In this document: in pieces, positions 12,660 through 26,425 of the stretch
Position numbering within the stretch: position 1 is the first letter of the stretch
How the letters are laid out: every line of letters begins with the position of its first letter
Assembly (NCBI GenBank): GCA_965243205.1
Contig: CBDEUK010000001.1
Location: 1-64,000, forward strand
Reading direction: 5' to 3'
Length of the DNA: 64,000 nt
Origin: Gammaproteobacteria bacterium
Lineage (GTDB): Bacteria; Pseudomonadota; Gammaproteobacteria; Eutrophobiales; Eutrophobiaceae
Notes under the pieces: generated by a model
Database searches by the model: none
The model's input: the letters and a program-made list of their open reading frames with translations, nothing else
Told to the model about the DNA's origin: nothing
Made by a program: the position numbers and the translations under genes

Positions 12660-12735
12660 TCCCCGATAGCTCAGTTGGTAGAGCGGGTGACTGTTAATCA
12701 CTAGGTCGGCAGTTCGAGCCTGTCTCGGGGAGCCA
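12660..12735 (+). tRNA. tRNA-Asn(GTT), prophage insertion target, intact
   Basis: TCCCCGA..TCGGGGA-G-CCA, anticodon loop CTGTTAA. Confidence 0.95.
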
Positions 12736-14265
12736 TACAACCTCCGATGGGAACTTTAGTTTCTTCGCGGTTAACATATCAGGCCTGAAGTAAATTATTG
12801 CTTTATCAGGCTTTAGTATAACTTCCTTCAGAACTATTTGAAGGAAGTTTCTTATTTTATTCACATTATTAGCTTCTTTAATAACATCAAATAAAAATAC
12901 TGCCATTTGATGAGCTTCTTCATTTGTTAAAGAAATATGCATTGGCTCTTCGTTCTCAAGCCTGTCTATGTTTGAACGAATTTTTACGATCTCTTGTTCG
13001 TTGTCATTCATATTTCTGACAAGCAGTATGCTATCAACCCCTTGTTGGTCTGACTGTAGAATTAAATCCATTAATTTTTTATTTCTAGTTTCTAATGTGT
13101 AAATTTTGGAATTTAACTTATCAATTTTTTCTTGTTGAAGAGCGGTCCAGTTTGCTGATTGGTTATTTAATTCATTAAAAACTTCTTGCATATTTTCTGG
13201 TGAAAATATTCTTTCGGTTACTTTGTTTATTAAAAAATTATCTAATTCTGAAGCCGTCACTCTTCTGTCTTCACAAGTTCCATTTTTTAAGTAGCCGCCA
13301 CAATTATAATAACTATATTTCCCAGACTTACCTGTTTCGATCATCATTGTTTTTCCACAACCATCACACCTAATTAATCCAGTAAAAAGATGGGAGCTAT
13401 GAGCCGAGCCGCATGAAGGTTTAGAAGGTGCAGCCTCGTCCATCATGGTTTGAACACGTATAAAAATATCATCATCGATAATAGCTTCATGTGATTTAAC
13501 TACTACCCATTCATCCTCTGGCTTTGGCCTTCCGGTTTTTTTATCTTTCTTATTAAAAACAATATATCCATTCACAGTTTTATTTCTTAATAACGAAGTA
13601 ATAGAGCATTTCTTCCATGTCTTACCTCTATTTGTTTTCTTTTGATCGTTTAAAATTTTAGCTATAGCTCGGGCTCCTAAACCTTCATAACGCATATTAA
13701 AAATTTCTTCTACTATATGGCGTTCATCCTCATTAACAGCTAACTTCTTTTTCTTTTTGCCAACTTCAACGGTTGCGTAACCAAAAGGAACGCCGCCGCC
13801 ATTATAAAAACCCTCGCGCGCATTACGAATCATTGACCTCATAGTGTCTTTTGATGTTTGCCTGGAATAATACTCATCCATTAATTCACGGAGACCGATA
13901 TTTAAAAATCTTGTGTCTGGATCGCTTCCAGCATCAAAAGATGCATAAACAATTTCAACACCAGCACACTCAAGACGGTGCCTGCATTGAACTGAAAAGC
14001 TTTGAGTTCTTGAAAACCTGCTGGTGGACCAGGTAATAAAATAATCAGGAAAACTTTTTTCGCAGTACTCAATTGCCTCCTCAAATTCAGGTCGATTTTT
14101 ATAAAACGCCGATTGACCGTCCTCCACAAACACGCGCAACACGTCAGCGTTCAAAGCTCTTGCCTTGTCTTTGCATCGTTCTATTTGTGAGTCTATTGGA
14201 AGCTCTTTTTCGGCCTGCTTCTGCGAGCTCACACGAACTTGAATAATCGCGGTCTTTCTAGTCAA
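12694..14265 (-). CDS. Large serine recombinase (integrase); 3' end crosses attL into the tRNA antisense strand
   Basis: VRVSSQKQ catalytic Ser, SRFSR, recombinase domain (PFGY), Zn ribbon LFTGLIRCDGCG..YYNC, coiled coil; TTG start after GAGG. Confidence 0.95.
   Translation of the reverse strand: MTRKTAIIQVRVSSQKQAEKELPIDSQIERCKDKARALNADVLRVFVEDGQSAFYKNRPEFEEAIEYCEKSFPDYFITWSTSRFSRTQSFSVQCRHRLECAGVEIVYASFDAGSDPDTRFLNIGLRELMDEYYSRQTSKDTMRSMIRNAREGFYNGGGVPFGYATVEVGKKKKKLAVNEDERHIVEEIFNMRYEGLGARAIAKILNDQKKTNRGKTWKKCSITSLLRNKTVNGYIVFNKKDKKTGRPKPEDEWVVVKSHEAIIDDDIFIRVQTMMDEAAPSKPSCGSAHSSHLFTGLIRCDGCGKTMMIETGKSGKYSYYNCGGYLKNGTCEDRRVTASELDNFLINKVTERIFSPENMQEVFNELNNQSANWTALQQEKIDKLNSKIYTLETRNKKLMDLILQSDQQGVDSILLVRNMNDNEQEIVKIRSNIDRLENEEPMHISLTNEEAHQMAVFLFDVIKEANNVNKIRNFLQIVLKEVILKPDKAIIYFRPDMLTAKKLKFPSEVVWLPETGSNCRPSD
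12720..12735 (+). repeat. attL core CTGTCTCGGGGAGCCA
   Basis: 15/16 identical to 59109-59124; equals the tRNA 3' end. Confidence 0.88.
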
Positions 14266-14708
14266 AGCCTGCGACCTCGATGCGCGAAAATTTTCGCGCG
14301 ATTTTTTAAAACCAAAACCTGAAGCCTATGTAGATATACAGGTACCCACCTAGGCATGTGAGAATGATTCTTATTACTGCCGAGCCCCCACCCCTTCAAC
14401 AAGCCAAGCATATCCAATGATTCTATGTATTGAACTGCGTAAAACTGAGAACAGAAGGAAGATAACTGGTTGATTCTACTAGTCAGTGATGCAAGTGAAC
14501 TGCGTATTATGTAATTACACGCAGTAAAGATTCTGTACCGTGAACTGTTATTGGCCGTTCTAAAGGAGATTTTCCAGAACCCGTGCAACCATCCCAAAAC
14601 ATCAGCAATACGTACACTATATATAATGTATAAGGGCACTCTATTAGATTTCTGTACCGTTAATGTAAACCGAAGCGCGTCTTTGGATAGGATATTTAGC
14701 ATTTAGTA

Positions 14709-15719
14709 TTACTTCTTGCGGAGTTCTTTGACTAAGTCTGTGACTGGTGTTTGAATCTTGTTGAGTGGATTGCCTTTATCTAAATCCTTTCGAAGCTTAC
14801 GCATGGCCATGTGGTTATATATATTTTGTGACTTAATATCTTGTTGACCCATGATGGTCATACGAACAGTCGGATCTATATCGCTTTCAGTAAGCTCAGT
14901 TCCGAATAGGTGGCGCACTGCATGCGGATGTAGCTGGTCCTCACGAATTCCCGCTGCAAGACCATGCTTTTTAATTATTCTATAAATACCTTTTCTACTT
15001 AAACGTGTGTTATCGCCATAGAATTCACTGGGCGGAATATTCCTGTCATGAGACTTTACAAATAACACCTGGTCGCCGTTAGGTAATAATCGGTTATAGT
15101 CTTCTAGCTCTGTACATCCAAGATATGCACGGACCATAGCCCATACCTCATCCGGTGCAGGTATCAACCTTTCGTTATCGCCTTTCTCATTAACCTTAAT
15201 AATGAGTCGTTCAATATCGTTCTCTTGAATAAAAACTAAACTCGAAACGTTCATATTCACTAGGCCTGATACACGCATACCGCAACCACCAAGAATAGAA
15301 ATAATCGCTGTATCTCTTATAGCCATAAAAGATCCGAGGCCTGGCTGCATTAACAACTTCTCGAAGTTCTTAAGGTGTATCTGGTTACCGACTCGGCGCC
15401 CTGCTTTTGGATGTTCTAAATGCTTAGAAGGATTTGACTTGATAAGCTTTCGTTTAGCCAAGTAGTCGTAAAATTTACGGATACACGAAACAACGATCTT
15501 CCTCGATGAAGGTTGCAAGCCAGCCTTATGCATGTGAATGCCAGTAAAGTACTCCAAGGTTTCATACGTCGCGGCCAGCATTGTTAGTTCTTCGCCCTGA
15601 CAATATGCATCCAACCTTTCAAGGTAGCCGCGGTATTTTCTGCTTGTTTCAATAGACAAACCTTCGCTGGTTTCAATGTAATTGCAGAAATGATTAATTA
15701 ATTTCATCGACTCATCCAT
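14709..15719 (-). CDS. Tyrosine recombinase (XerC/D-like, with core-binding domain)
   Basis: RDTAII..GCGMRVSGL, EKG, HPHAVRH, MGQ, NIY; start at 15719 after GGAG. Confidence 0.9.
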   Translation of the reverse strand: MDESMKLINHFCNYIETSEGLSIETSRKYRGYLERLDAYCQGEELTMLAATYETLEYFTGIHMHKAGLQPSSRKIVVSCIRKFYDYLAKRKLIKSNPSKHLEHPKAGRRVGNQIHLKNFEKLLMQPGLGSFMAIRDTAIISILGGCGMRVSGLVNMNVSSLVFIQENDIERLIIKVNEKGDNERLIPAPDEVWAMVRAYLGCTELEDYNRLLPNGDQVLFVKSHDRNIPPSEFYGDNTRLSRKGIYRIIKKHGLAAGIREDQLHPHAVRHLFGTELTESDIDPTVRMTIMGQQDIKSQNIYNHMAMRKLRKDLDKGNPLNKIQTPVTDLVKELRKK

Positions 15720-15769
15720 GTGAGGTTTCTCCAAAATTCACATCAAAAAAAATGGGACGGGGGTATTTT

Positions 15770-16245: not shown

Positions 16246-18972
16246 TTAAGGAAGAAGTTCTTCGGTAGCCTTTGGTGATGGATCCAGGCCGAACTTCTTT
16301 AGTTTATCTATATCGAGGGCTAACATACGCCCCACACGCGCTTTATTAATGGTCTTCTCTACTTTATCCGTGATAACTACGTTAGCGCTAATCATCTGCT
16401 CTTTTAAGATGCTAGAACTCTTCACTGGAAATGAATTAGCAAAGTCGCGTAAGTGCATATTCGTTTTAATATGATTCATCATATCGGTAGCACGAATAAA
16501 TAAAGCCTGATGCGACACGCCTTCTACTGCATGACTATCCCAAGTGTAATGATGGCGATATCGCCCTGTATCGATCTCTGAAAGGATGACTTCCATTGCC
16601 CAAACCCAAGGCTCACGCTCGGCCTCAGTACTGGCAATGTGGTTATTCATTTCTTTTACTAAACCATCAAAAAAACCGTGCTCAGAAGGGTTTATGTCAG
16701 CGAAATCGCATAGTAACCACCAAGAAGTAAGCACAGCAGCGTAGTTTGTCGTCATCCTACGCGCGCCATCATCGTTATCCTTGGCCATAGATTTATGTAA
16801 CATCTTGCCGCAGCACTGACGGTGCATTTTTAACACACGCTCTTTACTTAACGACGTTAAATACTGCAGCCACTCAAGAACTGGAAAGCACGACAAATTA
16901 TCTGGCAACATATCGCCTTTTTTATTCGATAAATTGGTACGTACCACCTTACCGATCAAACTTTTAACAGGAACATCCTCGCCAGCTAATAACACAGGTG
17001 CGCATAGCAAGAATTCCGTCATTTTTGAGCCACGTTTAGTACTTGTATATTGGTAAGCCTGCTGTAGTGCGCTCACTGCTTCATCAATTCGTTCTTGCTT
17101 TCCTGCTGAAATTTCTTCCCAGCCGACCGGATGCGAAGTGTGACTTAATGTAGTTAATATTCTAAAAGCAGAAAGCATCGATTGTTGGCCAAACACTGTC
17201 ATACCCAACGTGCCTTCGATACGCTTGCACAACGTGGACTTACCGGCGCCCTTATTTGCTTGCATGATGCAATGAGGGTAATAACCTAAGAACGCTTTTA
17301 AATGGCCACCCAAGCCCCAAACTAAAGGAATTAAAGCAGCACAATCTTTAAATGTATCGGCATAAGCTTTAATAACGTTTTTGGCTTGGTATTCTGGTGC
17401 TGAAGGAAAACTGAGTGAAGAGTAAGGGCATTGTTGGTCAGGGTCTGTAAAATAGCTATCCTTGCCTTCATTTACGGTCAATTTCCCATTCAACCACCCT
17501 AATCCAACAAAGTTAATGGCCTCTCGTGCACCTAAATGTGCTCCACGTTCCATGATACTCACTAAACGTGAGAATGCTTTCTTATTCCAAACGCTGCCAA
17601 ACTTGGTCCAATGATCAATGTTATGAAGCTGCTCATCTTCATACACTTTGCGTTTCAAATCGTAACCATGCCTTGGTATCTGCACACTGACAGCAAATAA
17701 TATTCGTGGCATTAAATCAGGCTGACCAGAGAGAACACTGGCAGAGCCCGCTACTTTTACTCGAGATAAACTGGCAATTCGAAAACCGCAGACATCTGCA
17801 TAAGTAAATTTTTCACCACCTTGATCATCTTTATCAACATTAGCAACAAAAGTTGTAAAGTCTTCTTTAACACGATACCGCCAGTACTGGCCCCAATCGA
17901 GCGCAGGCAGAAACACTTTTGCTCTACCCATCATTTGATCAAAATCACCAGGTAAACCTTGGAAGGCCCACGGCTCAATTTTTTTCAAGAGGCTTTTTAA
18001 TTCAACAAGATCTTGATTCTGCAAAATCTCATTAACGTCGTTATATTCCCACTCACCCTGGTCCACCATCATCGCGGAAATATTGTGACCAGTTAATATG
18101 TCATAAAGACTGTAAGCAGCTTCCCTACCTGGTGATCGATTTTTATCATTTGGCTCATCGTTATCAAAACAAATATAAATTTGTTTACCTTGGAACCATC
18201 GCCAATCAATACCATCGAGGCCGCTGGCCATGCGCACAGCAATAGCGGAGGTATAAGGCATCTTGCATGCCTCGATCGATAAAGCATTAATGGAAGACTC
18301 TACAACATAAACCGTTTTAGCTTGCGTTAAGCGCTGCAGATCCATAAACCACGGGTAACCAAACTTATCACCTTTGGTTTGTGTTTTTACATTGCCATTC
18401 AAACTAGGATCTATATATCGGTTATCAACCGCTACTACCTTGCCAGGGTTTAATGTACGAACAATAAATGAAACAGCATTGCCGCCATAACCTACTTCAT
18501 TAGGCTTTACTTTCGGGTTAGTCCATTCATTAAAACCAACTGAGCCACAATTAAGCGCTAGGCGCACGGTTTCTTCAGGAATATTTCTTTCTTCAACTAA
18601 ATAATTAATCGCTTTGTCTTTATATTTTAAACATTGGTCCGCCAACCATTCGATGGTGTCCTTTTGTTTTGGGGTCACAGGGGCGCGTGATTGCTCGATA
18701 CCAAACATATCATGCAGTTGTTTCATTGCTTCTTTAAAATCACAACCCATGACGTACATATAAAGATCAATGCAACTGCCATGCGCATCGTCATCATCAC
18801 CCTGAGAATAATCTCGCCAGTACTTACCATCCTTTTTAATTTCTAAGGACGGGCTTTTGTCATCATGATGAGGGGATTTGTAATTACCTTTGTTGCCAGG
18901 ACGTTCTATACCTAATTGCTCGGCTAAATCATGGCAGTTAATGATTTTTTTTAATTCTTCTGCAGTTGCCAT
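16246..18972 (-). CDS. Primase-helicase (Zn-finger-like + TOPRIM + P-loop)
   Basis: SPHHDDKSPSL..GSCIDL; VYVVESSINALS and CFDND TOPRIM motifs; ANKGAGKST Walker A. Confidence 0.88.
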   Translation of the reverse strand: MATAEELKKIINCHDLAEQLGIERPGNKGNYKSPHHDDKSPSLEIKKDGKYWRDYSQGDDDDAHGSCIDLYMYVMGCDFKEAMKQLHDMFGIEQSRAPVTPKQKDTIEWLADQCLKYKDKAINYLVEERNIPEETVRLALNCGSVGFNEWTNPKVKPNEVGYGGNAVSFIVRTLNPGKVVAVDNRYIDPSLNGNVKTQTKGDKFGYPWFMDLQRLTQAKTVYVVESSINALSIEACKMPYTSAIAVRMASGLDGIDWRWFQGKQIYICFDNDEPNDKNRSPGREAAYSLYDILTGHNISAMMVDQGEWEYNDVNEILQNQDLVELKSLLKKIEPWAFQGLPGDFDQMMGRAKVFLPALDWGQYWRYRVKEDFTTFVANVDKDDQGGEKFTYADVCGFRIASLSRVKVAGSASVLSGQPDLMPRILFAVSVQIPRHGYDLKRKVYEDEQLHNIDHWTKFGSVWNKKAFSRLVSIMERGAHLGAREAINFVGLGWLNGKLTVNEGKDSYFTDPDQQCPYSSLSFPSAPEYQAKNVIKAYADTFKDCAALIPLVWGLGGHLKAFLGYYPHCIMQANKGAGKSTLCKRIEGTLGMTVFGQQSMLSAFRILTTLSHTSHPVGWEEISAGKQERIDEAVSALQQAYQYTSTKRGSKMTEFLLCAPVLLAGEDVPVKSLIGKVVRTNLSNKKGDMLPDNLSCFPVLEWLQYLTSLSKERVLKMHRQCCGKMLHKSMAKDNDDGARRMTTNYAAVLTSWWLLCDFADINPSEHGFFDGLVKEMNNHIASTEAEREPWVWAMEVILSEIDTGRYRHHYTWDSHAVEGVSHQALFIRATDMMNHIKTNMHLRDFANSFPVKSSSILKEQMISANVVITDKVEKTINKARVGRMLALDIDKLKKFGLDPSPKATEELLP

Positions 18973-20090
18973 TATTGAGTACTTTTATTAGTTGCGGTTT
19001 GGTCACCTTCGGTTTGATTTTCGATATGCATAATCGCTCTACCAATTAGCTCTGGTATTTGTGGAACTACTGCATTACCTAACGCTTTCAATCTAGCCAC
19101 CCTTTGGGAAATCCCATCATCTCTGTGACAAAGTGCGGGTTCAGTCGGTAGTTCGATATGTCGGAATCCGTCGAAAAGTTGATCGCATCCTCTAAGGTAT
19201 TCGTCATGGGATTGCGTCCTGTCTTCTCCATTGCCTCCTTGCTTCTCGCCCCCTTGTGATCTCGAGTTGTTGGAGTTGGTAATAACTTCACTGCTGTTGG
19301 TAAGTCGCACTCCTGCCCTTTCAAACTCCTGCCTGAACTTCCCTTGTAATCCCTCGCTTGAGGGGTTGGTAACATCTTTAATGCTGTTATTAATCCGTTT
19401 CCACTTTTCTTGCTTGAGCCCTTCTTGTTGTAGTTGCCGTGTAAGGTTGGCGTAGGTATCAATTGTCGACAAACTTGATCTCTCAAGTTGCTGTGCTTGG
19501 CTCTGCCTGGCCGTGTTTCCGTCATTTCTTTTTCTATGGCCTTGTCTGACTTCGGCGGTAGACTGTCCATCGTATTGGGCGTTGCCAATAATCCAAACTC
19601 TGTCTCGTCTATGGATGGCATTGACGGCACAAGCTGGAATAACAAACGTTTGCCAGGTGTAGTTCGCGTCTTCCAAGTTAGATAACACATTGTCGAGCCC
19701 CATATTGATGTGGCCAGCAACATTCTCGGCAATAACCCATCGAGGTCTGATACTTTTAATAAGTCGATACATTTCCGGCCAGAGATGACGGTCATCTTCT
19801 TGGCCTCTTTGCTTTCCGGCAACACTGAAGGGTTGGCATGGGTATCCCCCGCAAATAAGTCCGATGTCATTGATGCCGTCATTAATTAATTTCTCTTTAG
19901 TAAGCTGTTTAACATCTTCATAAATTGGAACGTTAGGCCAATGCTTTTTAATGATGGATTGCGGATACTTTTCAATTTCACAAAACGCAACTGTTTTAAA
20001 TCCTGCTCGTTCAAGACCAAGACTAAATCCACCAATACCACTAAACAAATCAAGAACATTAATCGCTAACAACCTCAGTTTGAAAAACAT
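18972..20090 (-). CDS. C5 cytosine DNA methyltransferase, alpha frame (motifs I-VIII and X)
   Basis: DLFSGIGG, GGYPCQPFS, ENV, HRRDRVW, LKALGNAVVPQ; motif IX absent from this frame; true start may be a few codons downstream. Confidence 0.9.
   Translation of the reverse strand: MFFKLRLLAINVLDLFSGIGGFSLGLERAGFKTVAFCEIEKYPQSIIKKHWPNVPIYEDVKQLTKEKLINDGINDIGLICGGYPCQPFSVAGKQRGQEDDRHLWPEMYRLIKSIRPRWVIAENVAGHINMGLDNVLSNLEDANYTWQTFVIPACAVNAIHRRDRVWIIGNAQYDGQSTAEVRQGHRKRNDGNTARQSQAQQLERSSLSTIDTYANLTRQLQQEGLKQEKWKRINNSIKDVTNPSSEGLQGKFRQEFERAGVRLTNSSEVITNSNNSRSQGGEKQGGNGEDRTQSHDEYLRGCDQLFDGFRHIELPTEPALCHRDDGISQRVARLKALGNAVVPQIPELIGRAIMHIENQTEGDQTATNKSTQ
19088..19882 (-). CDS. Nested alternative-frame polypeptide of the methyltransferase (TRD-like repeats + motif IX)
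   Basis: 264 open codons nested in the MTase gene; LPTP..RDxKG repeats; RLNPHFVTEMMGFPKGW resembles motif IX. Confidence 0.7.
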   Translation of the reverse strand: MTASMTSDLFAGDTHANPSVLPESKEAKKMTVISGRKCIDLLKVSDLDGLLPRMLLATSIWGSTMCYLTWKTRTTPGKRLLFQLVPSMPSIDETEFGLLATPNTMDSLPPKSDKAIEKEMTETRPGRAKHSNLRDQVCRQLIPTPTLHGNYNKKGSSKKSGNGLITALKMLPTPQARDYKGSSGRSLKGQECDLPTAVKLLPTPTTRDHKGARSKEAMEKTGRNPMTNTLEDAINFSTDSDISNYRLNPHFVTEMMGFPKGWLD

Positions 20091-25756: not shown

Positions 25757-26425
25757 TCAAGCTGCTGCTTTTTGTTTCTCATTGACGCTTTGTCTAAAAT
25801 ACTCAGGAGTTACCCAACAAGAATGCTCTTCCAGTGTTAAGGTGTTTCCATGAACAACGACTGCAGGGACGCCCGTTAAAACTAATTGAATGTAAGCCAT
25901 GTGAACGCATCGCAAATCGACATCCACACAGGTAACACTCAATCGTTCACGATAATCCACATCTAATTTATGTAAGCGCTCAGCTGCAGCCAAAACAATT
26001 CCGCCAGAACCGACAGCAGGCTCATTTAAAGTAATTTTCTTATCGTCTTTATTAAGAGATATTTCATCGCTTATAGTCATGGAAGCCATTAACTGAGATA
26101 AGGTATAAGGAGTGAAGAACTGACCCGAATCTTTATTAGAAATTTCCATTTCCATAAACAATTCACCCAGCCAATCATTAAAGCCATGCTCTTGAAACAA
26201 AAGAACTAACTTCGACAAACAAAAACAAAATTTATCCAGCTCCTCTCTTTTATAATTGCCGGTTATATTAAGGTAAGCATCCTCACGTTCTTGCCAATAC
26301 TCTGTTTTTATCTGGTTTGCAAAAGCAATTGCGGCCATTTCTACCCAATCACGAAACACGGCATGAAGATCACGGGAATGAGCTATACCCTTTAGCGCTT
26401 TAATGATCTCGTTCTTAAGATGCAT
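25757..26425 (-). CDS. Short N6-methylase/HsdM-like protein lacking the NPP(Y/F) motif
   Basis: [22 protein letters not shown], then the protein ends. Confidence 0.8.

Follow-up and report, generated by a model that had tools for sequence, protein, structure and literature searches.

A nested pair of reading frames in a prophage-like element probably encodes a two-chain C5 cytosine methyltransferase

In a stretch of 64,000 nucleotides from a gammaproteobacterial genome (positions 1 to 64,000 of contig CBDEUK010000001.1; hereinafter the window), a gene of a prophage-like element contains a stretch of ~1.1 kb in which, according to the ORF listing of the minus strand, one frame (B) is nested wholly within another (A). 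This raises the question of whether the two frames jointly specify one DNA-methylating enzyme. The nested layout has been proven once, in E. coli, for the methyltransferase M.EcoHK31I, which was reportedly described by Lee, Kam and Shaw in 1995. We propose that the window's gene very probably encodes a heterodimeric alpha/beta C5 cytosine methyltransferase like M.EcoHK31I.

Motifs and domains of the two frames

The start of B lies 208 nt past that of A, which places it in the +1 frame relative to A. The features of the pair are listed below, with the invariant residues of alpha taken from a 47-sequence alignment.

18972..20090, minus strand: frame A, the alpha chain, 372 aa (ORF list; PF00145, TIGR00675 and phrog_363 matches)
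19088..19882, minus strand: frame B, the proposed beta chain, 264 aa, +1 frame (ORF list; phrog_1008 match)
20016..20051, minus strand: motif I of A, AdoMet binding (motif placement; G18 and G21 invariant)
19824..19850, minus strand: motif IV of A, catalytic Pro-Cys (P84, C85 and Q86 invariant)
19719..19727, minus strand: motif VI (ENV) of A (motif placement; E122, N123 and V124 invariant)
19584..19613, minus strand: motif VIII of A (motif placement)
19584..19727, minus strand: motifs VI to VIII of A, whole span (E122, N123, V124, R162 and R164 invariant)
19622..19798, minus strand: N-terminal core of B, residues 29-87, over motifs V-VIII of A (conserved residues; model contacts)
19152..19574, minus strand: spacer ("filler") of A, residues 173-313 (open, unconserved, predicted mostly disordered)
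19250..19591, minus strand: four tandem TP units of B, whole span (starts at 19591, 19462, 19375 and 19285)
19565-19591, 19436-19462, 19340-19375 and 19250-19285, minus strand: sequences of the TP units in B (the four modules of the original prediction)
19097..19147, minus strand: motif IX of B, over the conserved stretch of A that precedes motif X (V252, M256, G257 and P259 invariant)
19059..19082, minus strand: motif X of A (G338, N339 and P343 invariant)

Profile searches with frame A recovered PF00145 of Pfam (E 1.3e-45), TIGR00675 of NCBIfam (E 6.3e-38) and, among the PHROG families, phrog_363. Its residues 6-168 align with residues 8-169 of M.HhaI, and a Foldseek comparison of its structure model with 2uz4_A (E 3.4e-15) extends over 167 columns only. 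Motifs I, IV (Pro-Cys), VI (ENV), VIII and X of the C5 methyltransferases are thus present in one chain, but the TRD and motif IX are absent between motifs VIII and X, and motif IX and the TP units are found in frame B. Judged from these motifs, frame A specifies the large domain of a C5 cytosine methyltransferase, which binds AdoMet and carries out catalysis, followed by a spacer and motif X. When A is modelled alone the pLDDT is at least 86 over most of residues 11-170 (about 70 for residues 81-100) and over residues 341-360, and falls below 50 in the filler at residues 176-213 and 238-311. Furthermore, tblastn detected no similarity to the filler in any of 82 loci. The model suggests that this variable region of alpha is most likely a disordered spacer.

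Frame B has no match in Pfam or NCBIfam profile searches, and matches phrog_1008, described as "DNA methyltransferase" (E 2.9e-36). Its homologs number 563 at E<=1e-3; a search of the ESM Atlas returned only unnamed viral clusters, and the B profile had 0 matches to PDB sequences at E<=1. As B folded alone gives a weak model (pLDDT 66.9, pTM 0.35), for which Foldseek found nothing in the PDB at E<=0.001, no fold was assigned to it. In the beta alignment G35, S63 and W70 of its N-terminal core are invariant and W61, L68, T69 and L84 almost so, and this core resembles an addition specific to the lineage, overprinted on motifs V-VIII, which are universal. B was not found in the 40 genomes of relatives that were searched, so that the element offers no within-lineage comparison. 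The bases of motif IV of A, with a G5 run among them, also encode residues 12-20 of B, and motif X of A is found directly 3' of the stop codon of B (19090..19088). The original prediction had described A as bearing motifs I-VIII and X with polar filler instead of the TRD and motif IX, and the nested B (19088-19882) as supplying four modules and a motif IX-like stretch; all of these elements could be located, with residues 173-313 of A being polar.

Selection keeps the two frames open and conserved

An open frame B could conceivably be an untranslated by-product of the sequence or composition of A, and annotation, which usually lists only A (as in plasmid records and also in phage HB10c2), would fit this view. 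We examined the +1 frame over residues 73-170 of A in 53 non-redundant relatives (<80% identical). Over the catalytic core of A these relatives show 2 B-frame stops in all, both at the edge residue 73, as against a mean of 77.1 and a minimum of 61 in 200 synonymous shuffles of A. The +2 frame over the same core contains 287 stops, and an upstream control region contains 111, distributed over 41 of the 53 sequences. In the same relatives B-frame identity is 0.459, far above the 0.304 +/- 0.002 of the shuffles, and the identity of the third codon positions of A is 0.55 in the overlap versus 0.334 in the part encoding A only. The B profile, moreover, matches 31,616 cluster representatives at E<=1e-10 and 45,926 at E<=1e-3. 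The shuffles and the upstream control already contradict the view that B is untranslated, and the abundance of B homologs in sequence collections also speaks against it; we attach next to no probability to this view.

Across 78 loci the filler of A contains 1 A-frame stop, against an expected mean of 299 and a minimum of 262 in 100 shuffles, and only 2.7% of the locus-shuffles of the filler were free of stops. Together these comparisons show that selection keeps both A and B open and conserved. We also considered selection for a polar linker in the filler and rejected it: the Kyte-Doolittle value is -1.221 versus -1.189 in shuffles, and since the hydrophilicity is no greater than the codons of B dictate, the idea was dropped, with stop avoidance alone being demonstrated. 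The earlier expectation that the modules vary as both frames stay open agrees with the 1-5 units per beta seen in 83 ORFs and with fillers of 65-173 codons that hold a single stop in 78 loci. Interruption of B by stops in homologs, named beforehand as an outcome that would refute the original prediction, was not observed, the 53 relatives showing just the two edge stops.

Spread, start signals and natural variants

A set of 82 viral or phage loci was scored together with the window; 4 lacked a match, and of the remaining 79 the nested layout is present in 78. It is likewise present in 74 of 80 loci on genome contigs from many phyla. The nested layout therefore recurs widely in phages and bacteria, and our literature searches found no description of this widespread occurrence. 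Pairs in Paenibacillus larvae phages, such as BLOOM_56 and BLOOM_57 (MH454077), represent the same nested pair as that of the window: A and B match the same phage DNA (39% identity for frame A and 34% for frame B), and both products are annotated, each as "DNA cytosine methyltransferase". In the available part of PMC6070908 two methyltransferase gene products are listed and their overlap is passed over without comment.

In 75 of 78 loci, motif IV is preceded at a distance of 15-75 nt by a B-frame start. A Shine-Dalgarno match of 5 nt or more accompanies the B start in 45 of the 78; among 1212 control starts out of frame, 4.9% have one. No such match precedes the B start of the window itself. 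This is hardly informative, given that 22 of the 27 neighbouring ORF starts also lack a match of this length and 5 have one.

Natural variants exist in which the parts of the methylase are not nested or are fused again. In the relative L025, A ends after motif VIII and B bears motifs IX and X; in P0141 and P0143 a filler-less A is followed by B in the same frame; P0146 is a conventional one-chain methylase that has TP units and motifs IX and X, motif IX being in frame before motif X; and L071 has another beta after the nested pair, the two betas having different units. The in-frame order of IX and X in P0146 and L025 supports the identification of the corresponding stretch of B as motif IX. 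In four further sequences (P0039, P0046, P0123 and P0176) the N-terminus of A is joined in frame to B, these being either frameshifted or fused products, or errors.

Such A-to-B joins, known in a few database proteins, are what one might expect if a single polypeptide were made by two programmed frameshifts, with A read through motif VIII, a +1 shift giving access to the TP units and motif IX of B, and a -1 shift back for motif X. This would restore the order I-VIII, TRD, IX, X, as in the single-chain P0146, and the G5 run at motif IV could be counted in its favor. However, B is open and conserved for ~100 codons upstream of the needed shift and has its own start and Shine-Dalgarno sequence, and the filler stays open although frameshifting would not require that. 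L025, L071 and the permuted fusions P0141 and P0143 also fit separate domains rather than a frameshift, and M.EcoHK31I functions as two expressed chains. We consider frameshifting very unlikely.

The proposed heterodimer and its recognition units

Models of A and B in complex scored ipSAE 0.89, 0.89 and 0.88, whereas the best control scored 0.00; 58 of 80 solved complexes and 2 of 110 mismatched pairs attain the mark used for this score. These results favor the two-chain enzyme that had been proposed from the sequence. At least 52% of contacts are common to the runs, with partner pLDDT of at least 51, and the modelled contacts include residues 49-66 and 73-86 of B with residues 147-170 of A, and motif IX of B with motifs X and I of A. 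With respect to the IX-X contact, the score may partly mirror the model's memory of single-chain methylases.

An alternative is that B is a real protein but no methylase subunit, e.g. a regulator or an anti-defence protein that simply happens to be encoded by the same DNA as A, and the lack of a Pfam, NCBIfam or PDB relative of B might be adduced in its support. Against it, single-chain and L025-type relatives have the motif IX of B in the same frame as motif X, A itself has neither TRD nor motif IX, B is fused to the domain of A in P0141 and P0143, and in the complex model motif IX of B packs on motifs X and I of A. This alternative appears improbable.

We accordingly prefer a heterodimeric methyltransferase, which could be constituted as follows. 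Frame A would yield an alpha chain comprising the complete large domain (motifs I-VIII), a spacer of ~140 residues whose only clear constraint is the absence of stops, and a motif X helix closing the large domain. Translation of B would begin at a separate start, ~14 codons before the catalytic Pro-Cys, and give beta as the small domain. The N-terminal core of beta, overprinted on motifs V-VIII of alpha, would dock on the motif VIII strand of alpha, its tandem TP units of ~40 residues would read DNA, and its motif IX would pack on motifs X and I of alpha. The recognition region of the enzyme is most likely located in beta. B is presumably translated in this organism and both chains are probably needed for activity; the context suggests that the methylase might protect phage DNA from restriction.

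M.EcoHK31I (E. coli HK31, recognizing YGGCCR) is an alpha/beta C5 methyltransferase, whose predicted TRD is assigned to alpha in the available excerpts of PMC2836561 and PMC3404938. As reported in the accessible portion of PMC2836561, silencing of the beta starts left alpha without methylation, and the N-terminus of beta is required for association with alpha. Compared by this published description rather than by sequence, the two systems share a beta gene contained, in a different frame, entirely within that of alpha, and a distribution of motifs in which alpha has I-VIII and X and beta has IX; the N-terminal association part of the E. coli beta is comparable, as far as those excerpts go, to the modelled contacts at residues 49-86 of B. 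They differ in that the TRD that these excerpts place on alpha of M.EcoHK31I has as its counterpart in the window an unconserved, predicted disordered spacer, with recognition-like units on beta. In another split enzyme, M.AquI, the chains are encoded by separate, successive genes. M.AquI (CYCGRG) is described in the excerpted text of PMC3404938 as a two-subunit C5 methyltransferase. Its chains must assemble, as those of the window's enzyme presumably do, and the relative L025 is divided in the manner of M.AquI, one chain having motifs I-VIII and the other IX and X; unlike M.AquI, the window keeps motif X on alpha and has nested rather than successive genes.

Multispecific Bacillus phage methylases of the SPR, phi3T and SPbeta type carry tandem TRDs. 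They are reminiscent of the window's pair in having tandem recognition-sized units of ~40 aa between motifs VIII and IX, in a number that varies among relatives, but are single chains. Between beta and the 444-aa SPbeta enzyme there was no detectable similarity (the best BLASTP E was 4.3, and hhalign gave a probability of 0.24%), and the multispecificity raised as possible in the original prediction found no support in this comparison. The number of TP units per beta ranges from 1 to 6 among relatives, their median length is 40 aa, and one similarity component holds 361 of 440 units from 163 ORFs. P0123 and L025, two sequences ~40% identical overall to the window, each contain a nearly exact copy of the window unit at residues 170-199 of B. 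The variable number of units, the two betas of L071, this near-identical unit and the seemingly added core of B suggest a tentative reading, possible though on balance unlikely, in which the TP units are exchangeable DNA-recognition cassettes overprinted on the part of alpha that need only be stop-free. As that stretch only has to lack stops, units could be gained, lost or swapped without harm to the catalytic chain. If so, one alpha could be re-aimed, or given several targets or betas, and the nested layout would be a device for fast change of the methylation specificity of phages.

Bacteria and phages rarely have long same-strand overlaps in which selection acts on both frames, and the nested methylase provides one that is old, widespread and functionally interpretable. 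Standard annotation lists alpha alone, and beta consequently has no Pfam or NCBIfam model. A codon-optimized or otherwise re-coded "methylase ORF" would destroy beta, probably leaving the enzyme inactive, and a prediction of specificity from alpha alone would examine a spacer. The nested pair also offers a clean natural system for the co-evolution of two proteins on shared bases.

The nested frames and their prophage-like setting

The original prediction held that a cytosine methyltransferase is encoded in the window by two nested frames, and this description was borne out by our analysis.

20090..18972, minus strand: ORF A, 372 aa, the catalytic (alpha) chain
19882..19088, minus strand: ORF B, 264 aa, the beta chain, entirely within A

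As B is offset by one base from A it occupies the +1 frame. Three libraries identified frame A as a C5 cytosine methyltransferase (PF00145, 1.3e-45; TIGR00675; phrog_363), and motifs I, IV, VI, VIII and X were all located in it. Residues 8-169 of M.HhaI align with A residues 6-168, leaving the rest of A unaligned, and a Foldseek comparison of A with HhaI aligned 167 columns only. Frame B found no match in Pfam or NCBIfam and matches phrog_1008 (2.9e-36), which PHROG labels "DNA methyltransferase". The four TP units (candidate DNA-recognition modules) and the motif IX-like stretch quoted in the prediction are present in B, and with the above matches the earlier observation was right as stated. 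A 57-codon ORF in B's frame (19886-20059, minus strand) stops one codon ahead of B's ATG, and its start overlaps the stop of an upstream 97-aa gene as TAATG. It is probably not a gene; ribosomes terminating on the 97-aa gene could restart in B's frame via this ORF.

The gene is located in a prophage-like element. The window forms the beginning of contig 1 of a 2.79-Mb genome that has a single copy of the gene; a search of 40 relatives' genomes did not find B. Its neighbours in the element include:

Primase (phrog_5629), 908 aa
Helicase-like protein
Terminase-like protein
12694-15734, minus strand: serine recombinase (phrog_95, 523 aa) and tyrosine integrase (phrog_1, 341 aa), mutually adjacent and adjoining the primase
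25757-26425, minus strand: 222-aa protein, phrog_5696 (unknown function; 1.4e-70), with a weak match to phrog_1071 (DNA methyltransferase; 3.2e-10)

With the serine recombinase and tyrosine integrase side by side, the element carries two integrase types, and the 222-aa protein may be its second methylase-like gene. The 15 neighbouring ORFs scanned included no restriction gene, and hence the enzyme looks like an orphan phage methylase.

Recurrence of the layout and selection on both frames

In tblastn searches A and B matched the same Paenibacillus larvae phage DNA in different frames, and in phage Bloom both frames are annotated, with BLOOM_57 (234 aa) nested in BLOOM_56 (351 aa); these phage products are 39% (A) and 34% (B) identical to those of the window. 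We assembled a set of 83 loci: the window's own, two from phages and 80 from viral contigs to which B could be aligned. In 79 of them the N-terminal and C-terminal parts of A and also B were matched in a scorable order. A is stop-free from motif VIII to motif X in 78 of these 79, and an equal number (78/79) have their best B match in the +1 frame, the exceptions in the set being L055, with one stop, and L071, where a second copy of B matches best. Genome assemblies of bacteria and archaea gave 80 loci, and 74 of these show the same nesting (8 of the 74 extend past a contig edge); of the other six, four have an interrupted or discontinuous A and two are cut by the contig end. Record titles assign the genome-assembly loci to Bacillota, Bacteroidota, Pseudomonadota, Verrucomicrobiota, Acidobacteriota, Actinomycetes, Chlorobiota and Nitrospirales, as well as to candidate-phyla-radiation groups and two methanogen MAGs. 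A single 4.5-Mb Roseovarius MAG chromosome carries five loci with the same match statistics (L107-L111), apparently five copies of the nested-gene element. Run against 1.84 billion entries, a B profile matched 45,926 cluster representatives with a cutoff of E<=0.001; tightening the cutoff to E<=1e-10 left 31,616, and E<=1e-30 left 5,573. A pattern search of the best 150 matches found 146 without any in-frame A motif; the weaker matches may include single-chain enzymes.

To assess selection on frame B where it overlies the catalytic core of A, we used 53 A sequences less than 80% identical, drawn from 75 eligible ones after exclusion of three with a stop inside the match and of the remainder with an incomplete match. 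Amino-acid identity of A differs little between the stretch that codes for A only (residues 10-58; 0.561) and the overlap (73-170; 0.595), and third-codon-position identity is far higher in the overlap (0.55 versus 0.334). Over the overlap the +1 frame has two stops, both at edge residue 73 (in L007 and L025, directly upstream of the B start), against a mean of 77.1 and a minimum of 61 in 200 synonymous-codon permutations of A; B-frame identity is 0.459 against 0.304 +/- 0.002 (shuffle maximum 0.311). An upstream control region shows 111 +1-frame stops across 41 of the 53 sequences, similar to its own shuffles (119), and the +2 frame has 287 stops in the 53 sequences.

The spacer of A (residues 173-313), which runs over B's units, matched no locus as a tblastn query and ranges from 65 to 173 codons across loci. 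It carries one A-frame stop across 78 loci, as against a mean of 299 and a minimum of 262 in 100 synonymous-codon permutations of B, in which 2.7% of locus-shuffles were without a stop. Its Kyte-Doolittle value is -1.221 versus -1.189 in the shuffles; its polarity is thus a product of B's codons, and staying open is the sole constraint shown for it. An open spacer would let translation reach motif X of A. When A was modelled alone, pLDDT was at least 86 for most of residues 11-170 (about 70 at 81-100) and for 341-360, and below 50 at 176-213 and 238-311.

B is provided with a start of its own. In 75 of 78 loci a start codon in the B frame precedes the motif IV Pro codon by 15-75 nt, and in 45 of 78 a Shine-Dalgarno match of 5 nt or more is present 3-13 nt ahead of this start. 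For comparison, out-of-frame starts in the rest of A's core have such a match in 4.9% of cases (n=1212), the chance rate for the locus count being nearer one in ten because the best of 1-5 candidates was taken per locus. The window's B start is without a Shine-Dalgarno match, as are 22 of the 27 surrounding ORF starts. TAG serves as the B stop in 115 of 158 related loci, and its commonest position is within the Leu-Gly codons of A's motif X (64 of 158), so that the end of beta is set by alpha's most conserved C-terminal codons; the window's B stop lies 11 nt upstream of the motif X Gly codon. The window locus is a genuine dual-coding gene.

Candidate recognition units and natural variants

By motif count, 83 B ORFs have one to five TP units (in 12, 24, 31, 13 and 3 of the 83 ORFs, respectively), the window's B having four. 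When 163 B ORFs were cut at the units, 361 of the 440 pieces (median 40 aa) fell into one single-linkage similarity component and, with the caveat that single linkage can chain, are repeats of one unit. Similarity of B to the multispecific SPbeta enzyme was looked for and none was detected. The third unit (19286-19375, B residues 170-199) is nearly letter-identical in the database protein P0123 and close in L025, both of which are only about 40% identical to the window's B overall. This is a hint that cassettes have been exchanged or that the unit is very strongly constrained.

Several variants rearrange the two modules. P0146 has the conventional one-chain form: motifs I-VIII, TP units, IX and X share a frame, and the N-terminal core of B is lacking. 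In the database proteins P0141 and P0143, motif VIII of the A domain is joined almost directly to X, and a B-like region with about ten TP units continues in the same frame; these are circularly permuted methylases, fusions of an A domain and a B-like region. In L025 (1287-2466) A terminates directly after motif VIII (169 aa), and the overlapping B (328 aa) has IX and X in one frame. With both motifs on beta the spacer is unnecessary; the split is like that of the two-subunit M.AquI, yet the frames still overlap. In L071 (187-1955), from a viral contig, a further beta comes after the nested pair (987-1955; five units in 322 aa), overlying a 5'-truncated A remnant with a broken motif X. This arrangement, found in one of 163 loci, may provide two alternative recognition chains for one catalytic chain. 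Taken together, these variants mark the A domain and B as separable partner modules. Furthermore, in the database proteins P0039, P0046, P0123 and P0176 the alpha N-terminus (motif I, or I-IV) is joined in frame to beta, in P0046 at the motif IV G-run (in the window, G5 at about 19846-19850); these joins may stem from errors in sequencing, from pseudogenes or from genuine frameshifting.

The modelled pair and known two-chain methylases

The complex was modelled from alignments of A (47 sequences) and B in three runs with three controls, yielding ipSAE values of 0.89, 0.89 and 0.88 (best control 0.00); for comparison, 58 of 80 complexes of solved structure attained the score mark, as did 2 of 110 mismatched pairs. 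The runs have at least 52% of their contacts in common, and partner pLDDT is at least 51. Two contacts are confidently predicted. In the first, B motif IX (243-263) would pack against the motif X region and motif I of A; as this resembles the solved single-chain fold, the model may be recalling it. In the second, the N-terminal core of B (49-66, 73-86) would meet A 147-170. No solved counterpart of this contact was found, and it fits the reported need of the beta subunit of M.EcoHK31I, an E. coli methyltransferase, for its N-terminus in binding alpha (PMC2836561).

According to PMC2836561 and PMC3404938, the beta of M.EcoHK31I lies entirely in another frame of alpha and supplies motif IX, and alpha has motifs I-VIII, X and a predicted TRD. 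Going by this published description, the window gene equals M.EcoHK31I in layout and motif split but differs in where the putative recognition region is placed. Literature searches found no paper presenting the nested layout as widespread. The window gene very probably encodes a two-chain methylase, and it adds a member to an already known kind of such enzymes.
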